Part shown: piece after piece, positions 5,143 to 64,000 of the stretch
Layout: each line of letters opens with the position of its first letter
Numbering within the stretch: the stretch's first letter is position 1
From: Cyanobacteria bacterium UBA4641
Lineage (GTDB): Bacteria > Cyanobacteriota > Vampirovibrionia > Gastranaerophilales > Gastranaerophilaceae
Direction of reading: 5' to 3'
NCBI GenBank assembly: GCA_002405805.1
Contig: DHMN01000028.1
Location: forward strand, 4,163 to 68,162
DNA: 64,000 bases
Position numbers and translations under genes: made by a program
Notes under the pieces: model-generated
What the model saw: the letters and a program-made list of their open reading frames with translations, nothing else
What the model was told of the DNA's origin: nothing
Databases searched by the model: none

Positions 5143-6765
5143 TTAGACATCCAAAGCTCTGCCACCGCGAGAGTTATTTATATCGCTGTTTTCATCTGTA
5201 CCAGTGCCATATTCTGCCATATCATCTTTTTTAGTAGCGGCAACAGCTCTGATATTTGCCCATTGTCGAAGTGACAAAATCTGTTCTTTTTGAGTGACTG
5301 AAAGCGGTACGACATTTTTTATTGTATTTTCTAAGTCTGAAAATTCCAACGGACGTTTATTGAAAAACGCCTCATATAAAGCTGTAATAACAACTTGTTC
5401 AATTTCTGCACCTACAAAACCTTCAGTCAAATCCGCAAGTTTTTCGTACAATTCGTCGTTTACGGTCAATTTGCTTGCAACTTCTTTGTCTTTCAATCTT
5501 TTTGCCAAGTGAAGTTTAAAAATTTCCTTACGTTCACGATGTGTCGGTAAATCAACAAAGAAAATTTCATCAAAACGGCCTTTACGCAGTAATTCTGCAG
5601 GAAGTCCACTGATATTGTTCGCCGTAGCGATTACAAAAACCGGTGCGGTCTTTTCTTGCATCCAAGTCAAAAATGTACCAAAAATTCTTGAAGATGTTCC
5701 GCTATCTCCGTTTGAATTGATACCACTCAAACTCTTTTCGATTTCATCAACCCAAAGAATGGATGGAGCAACGGCTTCAGCGGTTTTGATAGCTTTTCGC
5801 ATATTTTCTTCAGAACTTCCGACAATTCCTGAAAAGATTTTACCAAAATCTAATTTCAAAAGCGGTAATTGCCAAGCTGCACTCATTGCTTTTGCTGTCA
5901 AACTCTTACCACAACCGGGAACGCCTGTAATCAAAACACCTTTTGGTGCAGGAAGACAGTATTTTTTCGCAGCCTCTGACCAAGAATTATTCCTTTTGTT
6001 TAACCAGTTTTTAAGATTTTCAAGTCCGCCGACATCAGAAACTTTAATATCGGTATTAATAAATTCCAAAATGCCTGTTTTTTTTATAACCTGCATTTTT
6101 TCACTCAAAATCACTGCCAAATCTTTACCATCAATTCGTCCATCGTTTACCATAGCAAGAGCAAACGCGTTTTCTGCCTCTTGTAAAGTCAGCCCTAATG
6201 CAGCCTTGCATAGTTTTTCTTTTCCTTCATCATCCAAATCAGATGTATCAATTTGATTATTTTGAGAAATCATCTTATCTAATTTTGCCTTGATTTCATC
6301 CAGCGTTGGCAAAGGCATATCTAAAATCGTAATTTCTTTTTGCATAGATTCAGGGATAAGCAGTTCTGACGCAATAAAAATCACATTTTTTCTGAATTTA
6401 CTTGTTTTTAATTCAGGAATAAGGTCTCTCAATTTACGCACAACATTATAATCAACCTGTCTGCCTTTCACTCCAAAATAGACGTGAAAATCACACATTA
6501 CAAAAACGGCATTTTTATTACATTCTTTGATAAAATCAAGTGCTTTATCAGGACTGTTTGTCCCTTCAATCTTTTGACCGTTTAAAATAAAACCGTTTGT
6601 CTGAGTCCAAGTGTAAACATCACGAGTAACTCTTATCAACTTTTCTGATTGCGCAATTCTTTTGATTAAAGCCAACGCGCGTTCTTCTTCCCACGTAGTG
6701 ATATACAAATATGGGAAACGTGCCCTAAATAACCTTGACAATTGCATTATAACTTTATTATCCAT
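5143..6765 (-). CDS. AAA+ ATPase, Ycf46-like
   Basis: Walker A 'GVPGCGKSLTAKA', Walker B 'ILWVDEIEK', sensor-1 'VIATANN', Arg-finger region 'LLRKGRFDE'. The N-terminal 'FRARFPYLYITTWEEERA' resembles the start of cyanobacterial/plastid Ycf46 proteins (from memory). Confidence 0.8.
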   Translation of the reverse strand: MDNKVIMQLSRLFRARFPYLYITTWEEERALALIKRIAQSEKLIRVTRDVYTWTQTNGFILNGQKIEGTNSPDKALDFIKECNKNAVFVMCDFHVYFGVKGRQVDYNVVRKLRDLIPELKTSKFRKNVIFIASELLIPESMQKEITILDMPLPTLDEIKAKLDKMISQNNQIDTSDLDDEGKEKLCKAALGLTLQEAENAFALAMVNDGRIDGKDLAVILSEKMQVIKKTGILEFINTDIKVSDVGGLENLKNWLNKRNNSWSEAAKKYCLPAPKGVLITGVPGCGKSLTAKAMSAAWQLPLLKLDFGKIFSGIVGSSEENMRKAIKTAEAVAPSILWVDEIEKSLSGINSNGDSGTSSRIFGTFLTWMQEKTAPVFVIATANNISGLPAELLRKGRFDEIFFVDLPTHRERKEIFKLHLAKRLKDKEVASKLTVNDELYEKLADLTEGFVGAEIEQVVITALYEAFFNKRPLEFSDLENTIKNVVPLSVTQKEQILSLRQWANIRAVAATKKDDMAEYGTGTDENSDINNSRGGRALDV

Positions 6766-6785
6766 TAAAAAACCTCTTCTTGAAA

Positions 6786-7397
6786 CTATTTTACTCTATA
6801 TTTCTCAACTTGTAAACACAAATTTTCACTTATTTTGTTAAAATCCCCCATACCATTGAGTTCTAACCGTCCATCTTTTGATATTCGCGCCTCAATTTTG
6901 TTTTTATATTTTTGAAAAATCTCAGGGGTATAAAAATCTGTCAAAAAATGGTATCGCTGATTTGATGAGCCTACCCAAGGACGAGAAAGGTCAAATTTAT
7001 CTTGTTCAAAGCCTCCATCAATCAACAAATCAATATTTGAAAGTAACGAATCCACAAAGACATCATTTTTGTCTTTTAATTCTTCCAACAAATACCCTGT
7101 AAAACAAACAACTGAAAGCCCTTCACGTTTTATAAGTTTGGCTAATTTTGACAAACTTTTTGCCTGCTCAAACGGTTCTCCGCCCAGAAATGTAACCCCT
7201 TCAATATTATCTATTTGCGCAAAAATTTGTTTAAACAACGACTCTACAGAATATTTTTCACCGACACCAAAAGCCCAAGTATCTTTTGCCCAACAGCCTT
7301 TACAATGTTTTTTACATCCCTGAACCCAAATGCAAAACCTGTTTTCAGGACCTTCAACAGCAGTATTTGGAATTATTTTATAAACATCCAACAACAT
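6786..7397 (-). CDS. Radical SAM 4Fe-4S single-cluster protein, NrdG/activase-like
   Basis: 'VEGPENRFCIWVQGCKKHCKGCWAKDTW' carries the CxxxCxxC cluster motif. 'VTFLGGEPFEQ' and the C-terminal 'GSSNQR' are as in anaerobic RNR/glycyl-radical activases. Confidence 0.7.
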   Translation of the reverse strand: MLLDVYKIIPNTAVEGPENRFCIWVQGCKKHCKGCWAKDTWAFGVGEKYSVESLFKQIFAQIDNIEGVTFLGGEPFEQAKSLSKLAKLIKREGLSVVCFTGYLLEELKDKNDVFVDSLLSNIDLLIDGGFEQDKFDLSRPWVGSSNQRYHFLTDFYTPEIFQKYKNKIEARISKDGRLELNGMGDFNKISENLCLQVEKYRVK

Positions 7398-57651: not shown

Positions 57652-60600
57652 ATGTGCGCAGAAAATGTCAAATTGAATCTGAACAAAGGTAAACTCGGTC
57701 AAGCTGATTTGAACCAAATCAAGGGCGGACTAAAACGTGAGCAAATCAAAGATAAAGCTATGCTTGCAATTTTTGACGCGTTAGATGACGGTAACCATGT
57801 TCTTGATGAAAAAGAGATTTCAAAATTGAAAACTCAATTACAAGAAGCTGCGAAAAACAGTAATCTTTCTAAAAATGAAGCTGAAAAATTTTTGAAAAAC
57901 TTGTTTGGTGATAAAAAAGATAAAAATATCACTAACGAAGATTTGTTCAAATTTATCAATACTCTGACCGATAACAGCAAAAATATTAAAAACTCAACCG
58001 CTACAAAAGAAAACGGACAAGACGTAATCACAACCGAATACAAAGACGGTTCTGTTGAAAAAATTTACCCTGACACAAAGAAAAAAGTCATAATCAAAGA
58101 CAACAAAACTTCTACTTATACAGCAGATAACACTCTTCAAAAAGAAGAATATTTTGACAAAGACGGAAATTCTGTTACTACAACTTTCACTGACGGCAAG
58201 CCGCAGAAAAAGACCGTTAAAACTCAAACAGAAACTTTGCACTACGAAGTTTCTGATAAAGGTGAAAAACTTGTAAAACGTGAAAATAATCAAAACAAAG
58301 CCACAACCGATTATGAATATGATGAAAAAGAAGGTACTGTTAATGAAACAGAACAAAATGGCAATGTAACAACTAAAAGAGTAAGACGCAACGGCAATGT
58401 TGAAACTCAAACTGCAGTAGAAAAGTTGGAAGATTCCACAGTAGAAACAGTTACAGATGCTAACGGTAATATTACCAAAACAACAGTAAATTCTGATGGC
58501 AAACGCATCAAACAAGAAAAAACAATCGACGGCAAAACTTATGTAGCCGAATACGATGGCAACGGTAACACAAAAGTTGTTGTACAAAACGGTGAAAGTA
58601 TTGCGCATCTTGCAAAAATCTTTGATGTTAAACAAGGTGACATCATTGAAGTAAATGAACCTGACGGCAAAGTTCATCAAAAAGGTTCTACAAAATTTTT
58701 CCTTGTTGGTGATACAGTTTTGATTCCAAAAGAATTGGAAGCCGATGATAAAAACTTAACCAATCGCAAAAGCAGTGCCGATACAATTGGCGACTACAAA
58801 GAAGATATGGCAGAAATCCGCCGTAAACAACAAGAACGTGCAGCTAGAGCTAGAGAAAAAGCGCAGGAAGCAAAAGCTCATGAAGCTAAACAAAAGAAAA
58901 AAGCCTCAAAACCAAGAGCAATAAGTTTCACTTGCAAACAAAAGAATTTCACAGAAGTTGCCAAACAAAATTTGGCAAGCCAAGGAGTTAAAAATCCGAC
59001 TAAAAAGCAATTAGAAGACAGAATTGCACAATTAAAGAAATTAAATCCAAACTTAAAAGACGGTCAAATTCAAGGTAAAAGAATTACTGTTCCGTGTTCG
59101 GAAGAAACATACAACAGGTTTGTCGGCAGACAAAAAGAAGTAACCGAAATCAACAAAAATATGCGCAACAACAGAACCGCAAAAGGTATCGCAAATAATT
59201 TATATAAAATTTGTGATGACAATGCTGCTGCGATAGATAAACCTGTATTTTGGAACGAATTGAAAAAGGTTAATAAAAATAACGTTGTGGCTGTCCTAGA
59301 TAACTATGATAAAGTTTTAGAAAAACACACAGGCGATTCATCTTTACTTGATACAATTTGTTCAGAAGTCGGAGCATCAAACACAAACAGACAAAAAGCA
59401 CTTAACCATATTTATAATTCATTGGAACAAGCTGCAAAAGAAGCAGGTGTTTCTCAAGCTGATTTAAAAAGTGCAAGAAAGAAATTTTCAACAAGTATGC
59501 AGCACGAATTTGACAAAATCGGTCGTATTGATACAAAAGAAATGGATAAAGCCGTAGACTTTTTGCGTGGCGCAACCGCAGCAGCAAAAGTTACTAAAGG
59601 TCAGGGTTCAATTTCTACAAGAGCTGCCATGAAATCTTTCTTGAATGGTGAAGATGGTTTGGTTGCACTGGATAAAGATGTTCAAAAACAATACAAAGAT
59701 GCAAGAGATAAAGAAGGCTGGGTTGCTAAAACAGGTGACTGGGTTTGCGGATTATTCGGCTGTACAACTATTGCCGATATGGACAAAAAGCTTGGCAAAC
59801 ACGCAGGTGATGTGAAGAAACTTGTAGCTGCCGCAAATAAAAACGATGAAGCAACTTTTAAAAAATTATATAAACAAACTTTCGGAATTGATTTTAATCC
59901 AAAAATGATTCAAGCTCGCCAAACAGCAAGAATCAATTACGAATCTGCTGCTGCATTCAATGCATCATACAAAGCCTTTGCAGGTTTGGAGTCAAAGACA
60001 AAGAATCTGAATTACCAATCTTTGCGTAACGAATTGAAAAAATCTTTCAAATACTCAGATTCTGATATTGATACATTGATTAAATCTTACGCACAAAGCA
60101 AAGGTATGGACTCAGCATCCCAAGCTGATAAAAAGTATGTTTTGGATTCCTTTATCAAAGAATCTAAACAACAGTATTTAAAAGAATTTCAAAAATTGTC
60201 TAAAGGTAAAACTTTAGAGCAAATGGGCAAAGATGTTGATTTGTTGACAAAAAGCGCTTACGGTACAAATGATATCGTCAAAGACGTTATCCAATTCAAC
60301 GAAAACCAACAAATGACCGAAATGGTGACTTCCGCAGCTTTTGAAATTGCAGGTACTATTGCATTACAATTTGTTCCGGGGCTAGGACAAATGGCAGCCG
60401 CAAAACTTGCGGTAAGTGCGGCTAAATGGGGTGCTCGCGGTGTAAAAATTGCAACTTACGCAACTAAAGCTGCAAAAGCAATGAAAACCGTATCAACTGC
60501 AATGAATGCAACTAAGAAAGCTAAAATCGTAACTCAAATGGCTTCAGCAGGCGTTGCAACAGCAGCAGTTAATTTGTCAAATAAAAAAGACGTCAAAGAA

Positions 60601-63600
60601 ACAATGAGAAAAACTTTGATGAATATGTCATTTGCAGGCGTTGGTGCATCTTCAAGCATCTTGGCTCCAAAATTGATGCAAGCATTTGGTATAACAAATA
60701 AAGCTTTGGCAACAGAAGTTGCAGAAGAAATCATCAATTGCGCAGGTTCTTACGGCGTAACAAAACTTGCAGGAGACGATTACGGCAAAAACGATGCATT
60801 TATAGACTTTGCAAGCGGCTTGTTAATGTCAAGAATTTCTCACGTAAAAATGCACAAAGGTACAAAAGTTGAGACTCCAACCCCAAAACCTGAAGTACCG
60901 ACCAAACCAGAAATTCCAACATCAAAGCCTGAAGTCCCAACAACTCCTGAAAAACCAATCAAAACAGATAAACCAATTGTAGAACACCAAGGCGCAGTTA
61001 AACCTGACACCGAGACAAAACCGTCCGGCGAAGCAAATAACTCTAAGAAAGTTCCTGACGATTTTAAAAAGTCAAACGAAAAACTTATTGATGAAAAGGA
61101 TTTGAAAAACAAGAAAAAAACAGTTACCCCTGAAGAGGCTGACAAATTTAAAGAAGCTGCACCAAGCACCAAACCTCCTGTAGCTGATGAAAAACCTTCA
61201 CTCCAACATCCGCAAGAAAAGAAATTCAACGGAATAAACGGCGAAGAACTGAAATTTGAAGTTATCAGTGAAACCGATTTTCCAAAAGGTAAAAAGTCTT
61301 ATTTAACAAAAGATGATAAAAAGATTTTTGTAGATGCTGACGGCAAAATTATATCTGTAAAAGATTACAATGCAGGTACAATCAAAGCTTTCGATTACCA
61401 CAACGCAGGTGATGCTCCATCAGGTTACACTTTGGTAAACAAAAAACAACAAATTATCAGACAAGTAGAATCAAAAGTTGATACTAATGTAACTAAAAAC
61501 TACGAAACAGGCGTAGAAACTATCACATCAACCAAAGACGGCTCAGTAATTACAGAAAGATATATGTCACTTTCTGAATACCCTGCTAATGCCCCAATTC
61601 CTGATGCAGCTAAATTTTCAAAAAACCTGAAAGCTCAAATTGATGAATGTACAGATATCAACAAGTTGAACAAATTGAAAGATGAATACAACATGTACAA
61701 CTCTCAATACGGTACTGCTGACGGTTCATTGTTCCAAGCTTTGCAAGATAAAGCATCTGCATTGCAAGGAACAGCAAAACCGACTCCACACAAACCATTA
61801 TCAAATCTTGTAACAAGTTCAACATTAGATAATGCACTAGAAAATTTGAATATGAAAAAATATGGCAAAAAAGGTTTGCCGTTGAAATATTCTCATGATG
61901 AAATGTTGAAAGACTTGAAAGAATCTCTAATGGCTCTTCCTTATTCTGAACGTTCTGCTATTATGAATAAATTCAACATTCATACAATTGGAGATGAGTT
62001 GTCAGATATTCCAAAACTTTCTCAAATTCCAAGCACACCTAATGAAGAAAAGATTTTGAATATCTTAAATAAATATTCAAAACAAAATTCTTTGCAAATT
62101 GCTGACCCTGCATTGAAAGCTGAATTAGAAAACTTTATCAAAGATGTACCTGAATTTACATTTATGATTGGTAAAAAACAAAACGGCGTTCATGCATACA
62201 GCTTAGATTCTCACACTATTCAAAACTTACAAAAAGCTTTGAAATACGCAGCAGATGCCAATATTTCCGATGAACAAAAAGAAATTTTGAAAATGAGTAT
62301 TTTACTCCACGATATGGGTAAACAATACAAAGGCGCATCAGTATCAGACACAGGGCACGCTGCACTAAGCAAACAGTATGCGGAAAACATTTTGGACAGA
62401 TTCAACTATTCAACCGAAACAAAAAATAAAATCTTGAATTTGATTGAAAATCACCACTGGTTCAAAGATTTTAACAAAGGTAAGCTAAGTGCTGACCAAG
62501 TTGTAAAAATGTTTGGCGATGATTTGACTCTTGCTCAAATTATGGCTAAATCTGATTTGGAAAGCGTTAGCGATACATTCCACTTAGAAATCTTAGAACC
62601 AGGTAAAAAACTTTCTCAAGCAGAGTTTGAGACCAAATTCCAAGAAAAAATGGATAAGATTTCCAGCAAAATTACACCTGAAGTCTTGGGTGAAGAATTA
62701 CCAATCGGTCAAATGGACAAATACAAACCTTACTATTTGGACAAAAGCAAAATCGACAAATTGATTTTGGGCAAAGGTGTTGAACTTGATATGAACGACC
62801 CTAAACTAAAACAATTGATGAATGATTTAAAAGAGGGCGAAAGCTTTGCTATTGGCTGTACTGACCCACATGGAAATTATCCGGATGTAAAATATCAAAT
62901 CGGCAAATATGCTGATGGCGTTGGCTCTCACCACGTAATTATTACTAAAAAGCACGGTGAATTTGTAATTGAAGTTCACAAAGATGCTGCTGTTATGAAA
63001 GATATTCCGACAGCTCACAACTCAGACCCTGTAATTGCAAATAAAATCGAACAAATTAAGAAAAAAGCAACTAATATTACATCTGAAACATTTAATATCG
63101 ACGGTAAAAATGTTCCGTTTGAAATTTTACACGGAACAAAAAGCGGTTCAAACAAAGGTTACTATGTAATAAATAAACAAACCGGTGAATTATTCTATGC
63201 AAAATTTGGCGGAGCACAAGGCAAAACAGAACTTTTGGCTAACAAATTGTACGCTATGGCAGGCTTAGGCACTCCTGAAATGAGTTCTTTCAAAGCCACT
63301 GACGGCACTGTGGGAACTTTGAGCAAATACATGCCTGACTTGACAAGTGTAACTCACGCAACTACAAAGGCTAACGAAGGTTTTGGTATGGATGTATTGT
63401 TGGCAAACTGGGATGTTGTCGGTATGAGCAACGACAATATGCTAAAAACTGCTGACGGCAAAATCATCAGACTTGATGCAGGCGGTACATTTGATTATCG
63501 TGCACAAGGCAAAAACAAACCTTATACATCAATTCCGATGGAATTTGTAACATTGATGGATGCAAACATCAACTCAAAATCAGCACAAATTTTCAGCAAA

Positions 63601-64000
63601 ATGACTCGTGATGATTTGATTAACTCATTGAACAAAGTTGCAAATTTAAAAACAACAGAAATCACAAATCTTCTTGATAGTATGGGTTTGTCTCACTACA
63701 AAGAACCTTTGCTAAACAGAAAGAAATTCTTGAAATCTTTGCTTGAAGAAATCAAAGCAAATCCGCAAGGCAGTGAATCTACTCTTGAATACATGCACAA
63801 TATGATGAACAAATCATTAGACAAGGCTATTTCTTCTGCTAAATCAGCAGCTGACTTGCAAGATATCAAACAAGCTTTGACTTATGTAAACAATCCAAAA
63901 GCAAAACAACAATTACTTGATAATATTGCAATCAAAGAAAAAGATTTGGCTGCCTCAGCTCCTGCTCCAAAAATCTTGTCAGAAGTTCAGGTTCAAAATC
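57652..64000 (+). CDS. Giant multidomain protein (over 2100 aa, 3' end beyond the window): beta-hairpin repeats, LysM-like x2, hydrophobic/Ala-Gly-rich segment, Pro-rich linker, HD domain, PI3/4-kinase-like domain
   Basis: I translated it by hand and found no stop from ATG 57652 to nt 64000. Absent from the ORF track because it has no stop in the window. LysM-like 'VQNGESIAHLAKIFDVKQGDIIEVN..VGDTVLIP'. 'TPTPKPEVPTKPEIPTSKPEVPTTPEKP'. HD 'HAYSLDSH..LLHDMGK..GHAALS..IENHHW'. Kinase-like 'GTKSGSNKGYYVINKQTGELFYAKFGG..DVLLANWDVVGMSNDNML..IRLDAGGTFDY'. Confidence 0.85.
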   Translation, partial: MCAENVKLNLNKGKLGQADLNQIKGGLKREQIKDKAMLAIFDALDDGNHVLDEKEISKLKTQLQEAAKNSNLSKNEAEKFLKNLFGDKKDKNITNEDLFKFINTLTDNSKNIKNSTATKENGQDVITTEYKDGSVEKIYPDTKKKVIIKDNKTSTYTADNTLQKEEYFDKDGNSVTTTFTDGKPQKKTVKTQTETLHYEVSDKGEKLVKRENNQNKATTDYEYDEKEGTVNETEQNGNVTTKRVRRNGNVETQTAVEKLEDSTVETVTDANGNITKTTVNSDGKRIKQEKTIDGKTYVAEYDGNGNTKVVVQNGESIAHLAKIFDVKQGDIIEVNEPDGKVHQKGSTKFFLVGDTVLIPKELEADDKNLTNRKSSADTIGDYKEDMAEIRRKQQERAARAREKAQEAKAHEAKQKKKASKPRAISFTCKQKNFTEVAKQNLASQGVKNPTKKQLEDRIAQLKKLNPNLKDGQIQGKRITVPCSEETYNRFVGRQKEVTEINKNMRNNRTAKGIANNLYKICDDNAAAIDKPVFWNELKKVNKNNVVAVLDNYDKVLEKHTGDSSLLDTICSEVGASNTNRQKALNHIYNSLEQAAKEAGVSQADLKSARKKFSTSMQHEFDKIGRIDTKEMDKAVDFLRGATAAAKVTKGQGSISTRAAMKSFLNGEDGLVALDKDVQKQYKDARDKEGWVAKTGDWVCGLFGCTTIADMDKKLGKHAGDVKKLVAAANKNDEATFKKLYKQTFGIDFNPKMIQARQTARINYESAAAFNASYKAFAGLESKTKNLNYQSLRNELKKSFKYSDSDIDTLIKSYAQSKGMDSASQADKKYVLDSFIKESKQQYLKEFQKLSKGKTLEQMGKDVDLLTKSAYGTNDIVKDVIQFNENQQMTEMVTSAAFEIAGTIALQFVPGLGQMAAAKLAVSAAKWGARGVKIATYATKAAKAMKTVSTAMNATKKAKIVTQMASAGVATAAVNLSNKKDVKETMRKTLMNMSFAGVGASSSILAPKLMQAFGITNKALATEVAEEIINCAGSYGVTKLAGDDYGKNDAFIDFASGLLMSRISHVKMHKGTKVETPTPKPEVPTKPEIPTSKPEVPTTPEKPIKTDKPIVEHQGAVKPDTETKPSGEANNSKKVPDDFKKSNEKLIDEKDLKNKKKTVTPEEADKFKEAAPSTKPPVADEKPSLQHPQEKKFNGINGEELKFEVISETDFPKGKKSYLTKDDKKIFVDADGKIISVKDYNAGTIKAFDYHNAGDAPSGYTLVNKKQQIIRQVESKVDTNVTKNYETGVETITSTKDGSVITERYMSLSEYPANAPIPDAAKFSKNLKAQIDECTDINKLNKLKDEYNMYNSQYGTADGSLFQALQDKASALQGTAKPTPHKPLSNLVTSSTLDNALENLNMKKYGKKGLPLKYSHDEMLKDLKESLMALPYSERSAIMNKFNIHTIGDELSDIPKLSQIPSTPNEEKILNILNKYSKQNSLQIADPALKAELENFIKDVPEFTFMIGKKQNGVHAYSLDSHTIQNLQKALKYAADANISDEQKEILKMSILLHDMGKQYKGASVSDTGHAALSKQYAENILDRFNYSTETKNKILNLIENHHWFKDFNKGKLSADQVVKMFGDDLTLAQIMAKSDLESVSDTFHLEILEPGKKLSQAEFETKFQEKMDKISSKITPEVLGEELPIGQMDKYKPYYLDKSKIDKLILGKGVELDMNDPKLKQLMNDLKEGESFAIGCTDPHGNYPDVKYQIGKYADGVGSHHVIITKKHGEFVIEVHKDAAVMKDIPTAHNSDPVIANKIEQIKKKATNITSETFNIDGKNVPFEILHGTKSGSNKGYYVINKQTGELFYAKFGGAQGKTELLANKLYAMAGLGTPEMSSFKATDGTVGTLSKYMPDLTSVTHATTKANEGFGMDVLLANWDVVGMSNDNMLKTADGKIIRLDAGGTFDYRAQGKNKPYTSIPMEFVTLMDANINSKSAQIFSKMTRDDLINSLNKVANLKTTEITNLLDSMGLSHYKEPLLNRKKFLKSLLEEIKANPQGSESTLEYMHNMMNKSLDKAISSAKSAADLQDIKQALTYVNNPKAKQQLLDNIAIKEKDLAASAPAPKILSEVQVQN

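Follow-up and report, generated by a model that had tools for sequence, protein, structure and literature searches.

The DNA analysed here, called the window, is a 64,000-nucleotide stretch of contig DHMN01000028.1 (G000:C67:4163-68162 in its own assembly) from Cyanobacteria bacterium UBA4641. The host is a gut Melainabacterium (Gastranaerophilales), an uncultured, non-photosynthetic relative of cyanobacteria, and its genome is 2.05 Mb in size, 35% G+C and 93.7% complete. On the forward strand, a giant open reading frame (ORF) begins at position 57652 and is still open at the end of the window (57652..>64000). The complete gene (G000:C67:61814-69076, or L002:1-7263) encodes a protein of 2,420 amino acids (aa), whose conserved trunk carries an intact HD phosphohydrolase domain, a beta-rich domain and an intact atypical kinase domain (window positions 62089-63813). 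An earlier inspection of the window, which we call the sequence-only reading, had proposed HD and kinase-like domains in tandem in the C-terminal part of this protein. The quoted motifs are all in frame, and both domains are borne out by a Pfam HD match, by 4,211 clusters of relatives of the kinase-like domain, and by invariant active-site residues. Their position within the protein had been misjudged, because the window truncates the ORF, which runs 304 aa further, to an ADP-ribosyltransferase (ART) domain. This third catalytic domain was absent from the earlier account.

The HD domain, a metal-dependent phosphohydrolase domain, occupies aa 1480-1680 (62089..62691, with the Pfam core at 62206-62469; forward strand, as are all features within the giant gene). 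It matches PF01966 with an E-value of 1.3e-7 and 32.4 bits, compared with a gathering cut-off of 22 bits. The HD signature is made up of LLHDMGK (aa 1551-1557; 62302-62322), GHAALS (62353-62370) and IENHHW (62443-62460), and the metal ligands H1521, H1553-D1554, H1569, H1601-H1602 and D1635 are invariant in 13 copies. Weak matches in NCBIfam and PADLOC point to Cas3-HD, to GlnD, and to the HD domain of the CCA-adding enzyme. The AlphaFold2 (AF2) model is all-helical over residues 1-200, which correspond to the HD part, and the Foldseek match for the HD model is the HD domain of a tRNA-processing enzyme (3wfp; rmsd 4.7 over 225 columns, with 18% identity).

A beta-rich domain of ~100 aa (aa 1684-1784; 62701..63003) separates the HD domain from the kinase-like domain, and is seen as strands at model residues 214-303. 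It is 95% identical to its counterpart in L004, a Melainabacteria metagenome-assembled genome (MAG), and is modelled with a pLDDT of about 75-85 and one disordered loop. The HD-to-kinase AF2 model has a pTM of 0.60, and gives no firm information on how the two domains pack. The gap from the HD signature to the Gly-rich loop of the kinase-like domain, previously put at about 250 aa, measures 277 aa.

The kinase-like domain (aa 1794-2054; 63031..63813) is an atypical protein-kinase-like domain of an unnamed HipA/CtkA/PI4K-II-like family. The sequence-only reading recognized a genuine region, but ended it at 63600, whereas the domain extends to about nucleotide 63813. We aligned it with 13 short relatives at ~33% identity (alignment A1, 14 sequences), and the residues expected of an active site are conserved throughout. 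The Gly-rich loop (G1832-S-N) and the beta3 lysine, K1851, lie within GTKSGSNKGYYVINKQTGELFYAKFGG (aa 1828-1854; 63133-63213) and correspond to G32 and K51 of A1. Next is the alpha-C helix (63226..63252; model helix 55-69), which contains the invariant glutamate E1860 (E60) in a HipA-like 'sEvlAskLY.lAG' motif. The catalytic-loop motif, D1914-x4-N1919-W-D1921-x7-N1929, is DVLLANWDVVGMSNDNML (63391-63444), and is invariant in alignments A1, A3 and A4. The last motif, IRLDAGGTFDY (63466-63498), follows strand 138-140 and supplies a Mg-binding 'DFG-equivalent', R-L-D1942-A-G-G, in which D142, G144 and G145 of the alignment are invariant. Altogether, G1832, Y1849, K1851, E1860, D1914, N1919, W1920, D1921, N1929, D1942 and G1944-G1945 are invariant in A1, and D1921, N1929 and D1942 are invariant across A1, A3 and A4.

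AlphaFold2 applied to A1 yields a model with a pLDDT of 91.6 and a pTM of 0.90. The model is bilobal, with a beta-sheet N-lobe that includes the alpha-C helix and a helical C-lobe, which is the organization of the protein-kinase-like (PKL) fold. K1851 is on model strand 47-52 and E1860 is in the helix that follows; D1921 and N1929 fall in a loop that leads to a short strand, and the strand after that is followed immediately by D1942. All matches listed by Foldseek in the PDB are kinases, including Vps34, CtkA, YabT and LegK4. A VIA structure search, which is independent of Foldseek, returned CtkA (3akj, 14.7), CotH (5jda, 14.4), PI4K-II-alpha (4pla, 12.5), MavQ (7m7a, 11.9), Fam20 (5xom, 11.8), HipA (4pu3, 11.7) and actin-fragmin kinase (1cja, 11.0), each aligned over 197-218 residues. 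N-acetylhexosamine-kinase and APH-like folds have lower ranks in this search. In a language-model Atlas, the nearest named clusters are PI3_PI4_kinase, LepB_N and HipA_2. As modelled, the domain is closest to a group within the protein-kinase-like fold that comprises HipA/CtkA, CotH, and type II PI4K/actin-fragmin kinase.

The likeness to type II PI4-kinases and actin-fragmin kinase that had been suggested from the motifs thus holds for fold and motifs, but the nearest relatives are protein kinases of the HipA/CtkA type. A lipid substrate, as also suggested, finds no support: the top match, CtkA, phosphorylates proteins, those ranked near it (CotH, PI4K-II-alpha, MavQ and HipA) include kinases of both proteins and lipids, and PF00454 (PI3_PI4_kinase) does not match even at E<=5. 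The catalytic loop is NWD-x7-N, without the Arg-His of the lipid-kinase loop DRHxxN. The only signal at sequence level is to HipA_C, which matches below threshold in 5 of the 14 relatives (best E-value 3.9e-4), and HipA aa ~187-236 repeatedly align, though not significantly, at the alpha-C region of family members. The HipA profiles PF07804 and PF20613 do not match the kinase-like domain of the giant protein itself, and Pfam detects neither a HipA N-terminal subdomain nor a HipB/HipS partner in the giant protein or its neighbours. A search of PDB chains with the single kinase-like sequence gave no match. When the 14-sequence profile was used instead, no kinase was found, and a match to FliG, on the C-terminal helices, was rejected as spurious.

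Beyond the trunk, the giant protein changes character. At 63949..64000, where identity to L004 drops, an Ala/Pro linker (AASAPAPK, aa 2100-2107) leads into the first part of a variable C-terminal cassette. The remainder of the cassette lies beyond the end of the window and includes the ART domain (aa ~2220-2407; L002:~6658-7221), which matches ADPrib_exo_Tox (PF03496, E-value 1.4e-18), and its Arg, Ser and Glu-x-Glu (R-S-ExE) residues are invariant in alignment A5. A complex prediction for the kinase domain with the ART cassette gave a median score of 0.00, which speaks neither for nor against docking. Two tandem paralogous small ORFs follow the ART (L002:7282-7473, 63 aa, and L002:7494-7802, 102 aa) and have in common the motif 'EFKT.KV.FFPEDVEKMK'. 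The 102-aa ORF has no match in Pfam, NCBIfam or PADLOC. After these, on the opposite strand, is an ADP-ribosylglycohydrolase (ARH; L002:7805-8881, PF03747, E-value 5e-74), with weaker matches to DraG (2.8e-25) and to the Tri1 model NF041672 (1.5e-18, below cut-off). By analogy with BAH or Tri1, ARH is probably a general enzymatic immunity protein, and the two small ORFs, which co-vary with the tip, look like candidate immunity proteins.

Comparison with orthologs separates the conserved and variable parts of the locus. The trunk, including the HD and kinase-like domains, is 91-95% identical to that of L004 and has a dN/dS of 0.05-0.08 (0.05-0.07 for the HD and kinase-like domains, and 0.05 for HD), which reflects purifying selection. 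After the linker, the last ~315 aa are only 42% identical, and across the linker identity falls from 85-98% to 35-51%. The synonymous divergence dS is 1.27 in the tip versus 0.36-0.67 in the trunk. ARH is 97% identical to that of L004, and the small ORFs are ~47% identical. The kinase part of a metagenomic fragment, P0155, is 96% identical to the giant protein and is fused to a different type of tip. A conserved trunk followed by a diverged tip therefore shows that the tip has been swapped, as in polymorphic toxins, and in sequence terms the locus bears the signature of such a toxin, in that its tip resembles a cassette and the immunity candidates vary together with it. No part of the protein is better conserved in the distant orthologs, L005 and L006, than the stretch from HD to kinase (54-74% identity, compared with ~32-56% in the N-terminal two thirds). 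Intact orthologous ORFs of 2419-2613 aa are present in four further MAGs. Of 24 congeneric genomes, 6 have the gene, versus none of 16 genomes from other genera of the order.

An HD domain adjoining the kinase-like domain was seen only in this Gastranaerophilales lineage, where it occurs in both orders. The order in the present protein is HD, kinase, ART. The reverse, kinase then HD, is found in giant proteins of 2,600-2,760 aa from other Gastranaerophilales MAGs (L007, L008 and L009), which have an unrelated N-terminal part and no recognisable ART.

The kinase-like domain is one member of a large family. An exhaustive HMMER scan of 1.84 billion representatives of 50%-identity clusters yielded 4,211 representatives with E<=1e-3, and 2,121 of these reach E<=1e-10. 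Most are large proteins with several domains, the MuF capsid toxins of phages among them, and the kinase-like domain often precedes an ART. Domain architectures were counted on the 150 best of the 4,211 representatives: 35 have 2-5 copies of the kinase-like domain, and 104 contain an ART-like domain, with a median kinase-to-ART spacer of 158 aa. Of the 102 such proteins found with an iterated profile, all but two have the ART downstream of a kinase copy. In P0013 (3,416 aa), P0023 and P0057, three to five kinase-like copies are arranged in tandem within one polypeptide.

Other domains in the sampled members are Phage_Mu_F, Phage_min_cap2, WGR, NUDIX, InPase, HipA_C, APH and PTP, with SH2 in one, and a weak ApoL match was noted in one family member. 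MuF is present in 11 of 61 sampled members and begins all six large viral ORFs that were scanned. Of 34 sampled members, 13 (P0076, P0081, P0084, P0088, P0092 and P0095 among them) have a WGR domain, as in PARPs, at a distance of 130-200 aa upstream of the kinase-like domain, and these also end in an ART-like R-S-ExE region.

Viral sequences also show the kinase-like domain apart from an ART. The peptide pattern D[AV][WL]LANWD identified 378 confirmed stretches in IMG/VR. The kinase-like domain lacks an ART in cis in 42 of 73 viral ORFs, and at one locus only is an ART encoded in a separate ORF nearby. Because the domain is so commonly found without an ART, it is independent of the ART, and we reject an obligate coupling of the two. 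Standalone versions of 220-320 aa exist as well. In certain phage ORFs of ~520 aa in IMG/VR (L040:5092-6642 and L046:5065-6645), the kinase-like domain comes directly after a NUDIX domain, and the two make up the ORF. Here a phosphohydrolase is joined to the kinase-like domain a second time, independently of the pairing with HD.

Given this conservation and the modelled fold, we favour the view, to which we assign a probability of roughly 0.6, that the kinase-like domain is an independent, catalytically active, HipA-like phosphotransferase effector within a polymorphic-toxin-like protein. The domain is predicted to be catalytically competent, and would transfer phosphate in an ATP-dependent reaction. 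As HipA does, it would disable some conserved target in the cytoplasm of a recipient bacterial cell, and this target would most likely be a protein. The HD and ART domains would then be further, separate heads of the same protein. The tip is the strain-variable, Arg-type (R-S-ExE) ART cassette, for which the small ORFs and ARH would act as immunity genes.

Several observations weigh against this interpretation. No Pfam (E<=5), NCBIfam, PHROGs or PADLOC model matches the kinase-like domain. An hhalign comparison of the family profile with Escherichia coli HipA is not significant (probability 0.6%), and a phmmer search with HipA among 163 family members reached no E-value below 0.06. The fold by itself cannot separate kinases of proteins, lipids and small molecules, and is not decisive for substrate class because the lipid kinases PI4KII-alpha and MavQ score nearly as highly as CtkA and HipA. 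The recurrent neighbours NUDIX, HD, InPase and WGR hint at a nucleotide-centred rather than a protein-kinase role. No immunity candidate was found for the HD and kinase heads, so that any toxicity in the cytoplasm of the producer is unexplained. Nor was a secretion route found: a signal peptide is absent, and so is a C39 peptidase, although the N-terminus has a motif resembling a double-glycine leader.

The hint from these neighbours could mean that the kinase-like domain phosphorylates a nucleotide, an NAD or ADP-ribose derivative, or a nucleic-acid end, in concert with the ART and with a phosphohydrolase partner, which would be HD in the present protein and NUDIX or a pyrophosphatase in others. 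Such a module might, for example, make or destroy a signalling or toxic nucleotide, or modify an ADP-ribosyl mark. Pairing with a phosphohydrolase does recur, both in the two HD-kinase orders within Gastranaerophilales and in the direct NUDIX-kinase fusions of phage contigs; NUDIX, InPase and WGR occur in family members, and the present HD domain resembles those of the CCA-adding enzyme, GlnD and Cas3, all of which have nucleotides or nucleic acids as substrates. MuF toxins are also known to include the (p)ppApp synthetase Apk2 (PMC11699363). However, domain co-occurrence is weak evidence because polyvalent proteins string unrelated effectors together (PMC5512222). Most family members have neither HD nor NUDIX, and among solved structures the nearest folds belong to kinases of proteins or lipids and not of small molecules. 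We regard a nucleotide-centred role as unlikely. The same structural matches, with PI4KII-alpha and MavQ among them, bring up an effector that phosphorylates phosphoinositides or other lipids of eukaryotic (host or protist) membranes, like Legionella MavQ or LepB. This role appears improbable, in that the weak sequence signal is to HipA_C and not to PF00454, and the family is abundant in phage MuF proteins. We take MuF proteins to act in the bacterial cytoplasm, where inositol lipids are mostly absent. The layout of ART, ARH and small ORFs, moreover, fits interbacterial toxin-immunity loci.

The frequent company of an ART raises the question of whether the kinase fold is regulatory, controlling the neighbouring ART through autophosphorylation or by sensing a cofactor of the recipient cell. 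SidJ, which has a kinase fold and enzymatically modifies the SidE ART, is a partial precedent. The kinase-then-ART order is nearly fixed and its spacing consistent, 104 of the 150 closest representatives have an ART, and the kinase-like domain belongs to the conserved trunk and not to the swapped tip. We nonetheless consider a regulatory function quite improbable, because it is at odds with the phage ORFs that have no ART in cis, only one of which has an ART nearby in trans, with the proteins carrying two to five kinase copies, and with the standalone versions. Least of all would we expect the giant protein to have a non-toxic role in the cell envelope or in housekeeping, with HD and kinase-like domains that serve the physiology of the producer; this seems very improbable. 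Genes flanking it are of the housekeeping (RadA, CinA, DciA, DHH) or envelope (SLH, pilin-like) type, with no phage or secretion genes nearby, and a LysM-like segment and a hydrophobic region (described below) would suit an envelope protein. A housekeeping function fits poorly with the patchy distribution of the gene within the genus, with a recombined C-terminal ART cassette and co-varying small ORFs, and with the fact that most relatives of the kinase-like domain are in phage MuF toxins.

A HipA-like effector, as favoured here, would still differ from known systems in several respects. There are precedents for HD domains, PKL kinases, ART toxins and polymorphic toxins, whereas the kinase-like family is unnamed in four HMM libraries. 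We did not find a description of it in the literature, which is not proof of absence. The HipA/CtkA family (HipA_C, PF07804; PDB 3akj, 4pu3, 5k98) is without a significant sequence match to the giant protein. HipA belongs to a two-gene toxin-antitoxin module, whereas the present protein resembles an exported toxin of 2,420 aa and lacks the HipA N-terminal subdomain and a HipB-type antitoxin. The catalytic loop of HipA is of the D-x-H-x-K-N type, unlike the NWD-x7-N loop observed here. Type II PI 4-kinase, actin-fragmin kinase and Legionella MavQ (4pla, 1cja, 7m7a) are set apart by PF00454, as noted above. Neither membrane targeting nor a lipid substrate is indicated for the giant protein, and the main habitat of the present family is phage and bacterial toxins.

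Kinase-PolyVal (PF18762) is similar in being a kinase-fold domain found among many effectors in large proteins of phages and conjugative elements (PMC5512222). That domain lacks the whole C-terminal subdomain and keeps His and Asp catalytic residues (PMC5512222). We rejected this identity for the domain in the giant protein, as the profile gives no match, and the helical C-lobe and NWD motif differ from the described family.

The closest parallel to the variable end of the locus is the experimentally studied set of Bxa, Bsi and BAH, which are a MuF-ART toxin, its small inhibitor and an ADP-ribosylhydrolase immunity protein, respectively (PMC11699363). The ART tip, small ORFs and ADP-ribosylhydrolase at the present locus mirror these three. 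No kinase-like or HD domain was described for Bxa (PMC11699363). The giant protein shares with the MuF toxins of temperate phages a variable C-terminal toxin, and its kinase-like relatives are MuF cargo; unlike them, it has no MuF domain, is encoded outside a prophage, and has its own N-terminal carrier of 1,480 aa, which is lineage-specific. Another comparison is with Tre1-Tri1 of Serratia, an Arg-ART delivered through a type VI secretion system (T6SS) and an ADP-ribosylarginine hydrolase that confers immunity. Both loci place an ExE-type ART beside an ARH-family hydrolase. The present locus differs in that it has no T6SS context, its hydrolase is on the opposite strand and closer to DraG, and two extra enzyme heads are present.

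A more far-reaching possibility is that the family represents a new and very large class of phosphotransferase toxins, deployed both via phage capsids, as MuF fusions, and in giant chromosomal toxins, with a target or chemistry unlike that of HipA. This proposal is tentative, and we would sooner expect it to fail than to hold. The domain might, for instance, phosphorylate a nucleotide, or else a derivative of ADP-ribose or some conserved protein of bacteria, in each case together with an HD or NUDIX partner. If such a class exists, it would amount to a new mode of interbacterial and phage-host warfare. Atypical kinase folds such as HipA, CotH, SidJ, SelO, MavQ and HopBF1 have repeatedly been sources of new chemistry. 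The present branch, with more than 4,000 clusters, resides chiefly in the MuF capsid toxins of phages and in giant toxins of gut Melainabacteria. Knowledge of the substrate would explain the effects on hosts of a large share of the 'polyvalent' proteins injected by phages, and would also show how an abundant, uncultured lineage of the human gut competes. The locus, in which three enzyme heads and an exchangeable ART tip are combined with two putative inhibitor ORFs and an ADP-ribosylhydrolase, offers a compact test bed for these questions.

Genes upstream of the giant gene encode RadA, CinA, a pilin-like protein and an SLH protein, and those downstream encode the ADP-ribosylglycohydrolase, DciA and a DHH protein; no prophage, phage or secretion genes are among these flanking genes. 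Pfam recognises no trafficking domain in the giant protein. An N-terminal motif (...DLNQIKGG, aa 8-26; 57652..57729) resembles a double-glycine leader, and is kept in orthologs L003-L006. We set aside the idea that a C39-peptidase exporter reads this conserved motif: Peptidase_C39 (PF03412) has no match in the 93.7% complete genome of this organism. A LysM-like segment at aa 310-337 (58579..58662) is weak, with an E-value of 0.0016 and 18.8 bits, below the Pfam cut-off of 20.9. A long Ala/Gly-rich, amphipathic or hydrophobic helical region extends over window positions 60200-60900 (aa ~860-1080), and is followed by a Pro/Lys/Thr-rich linker (aa ~1085-1200). This helical region may be a membrane-insertion or translocation segment. 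Within it, a Kyte-Doolittle window scan located the most hydrophobic stretch of the protein at aa 891-921 (60322..60414), which is possibly a segment that inserts into a membrane.

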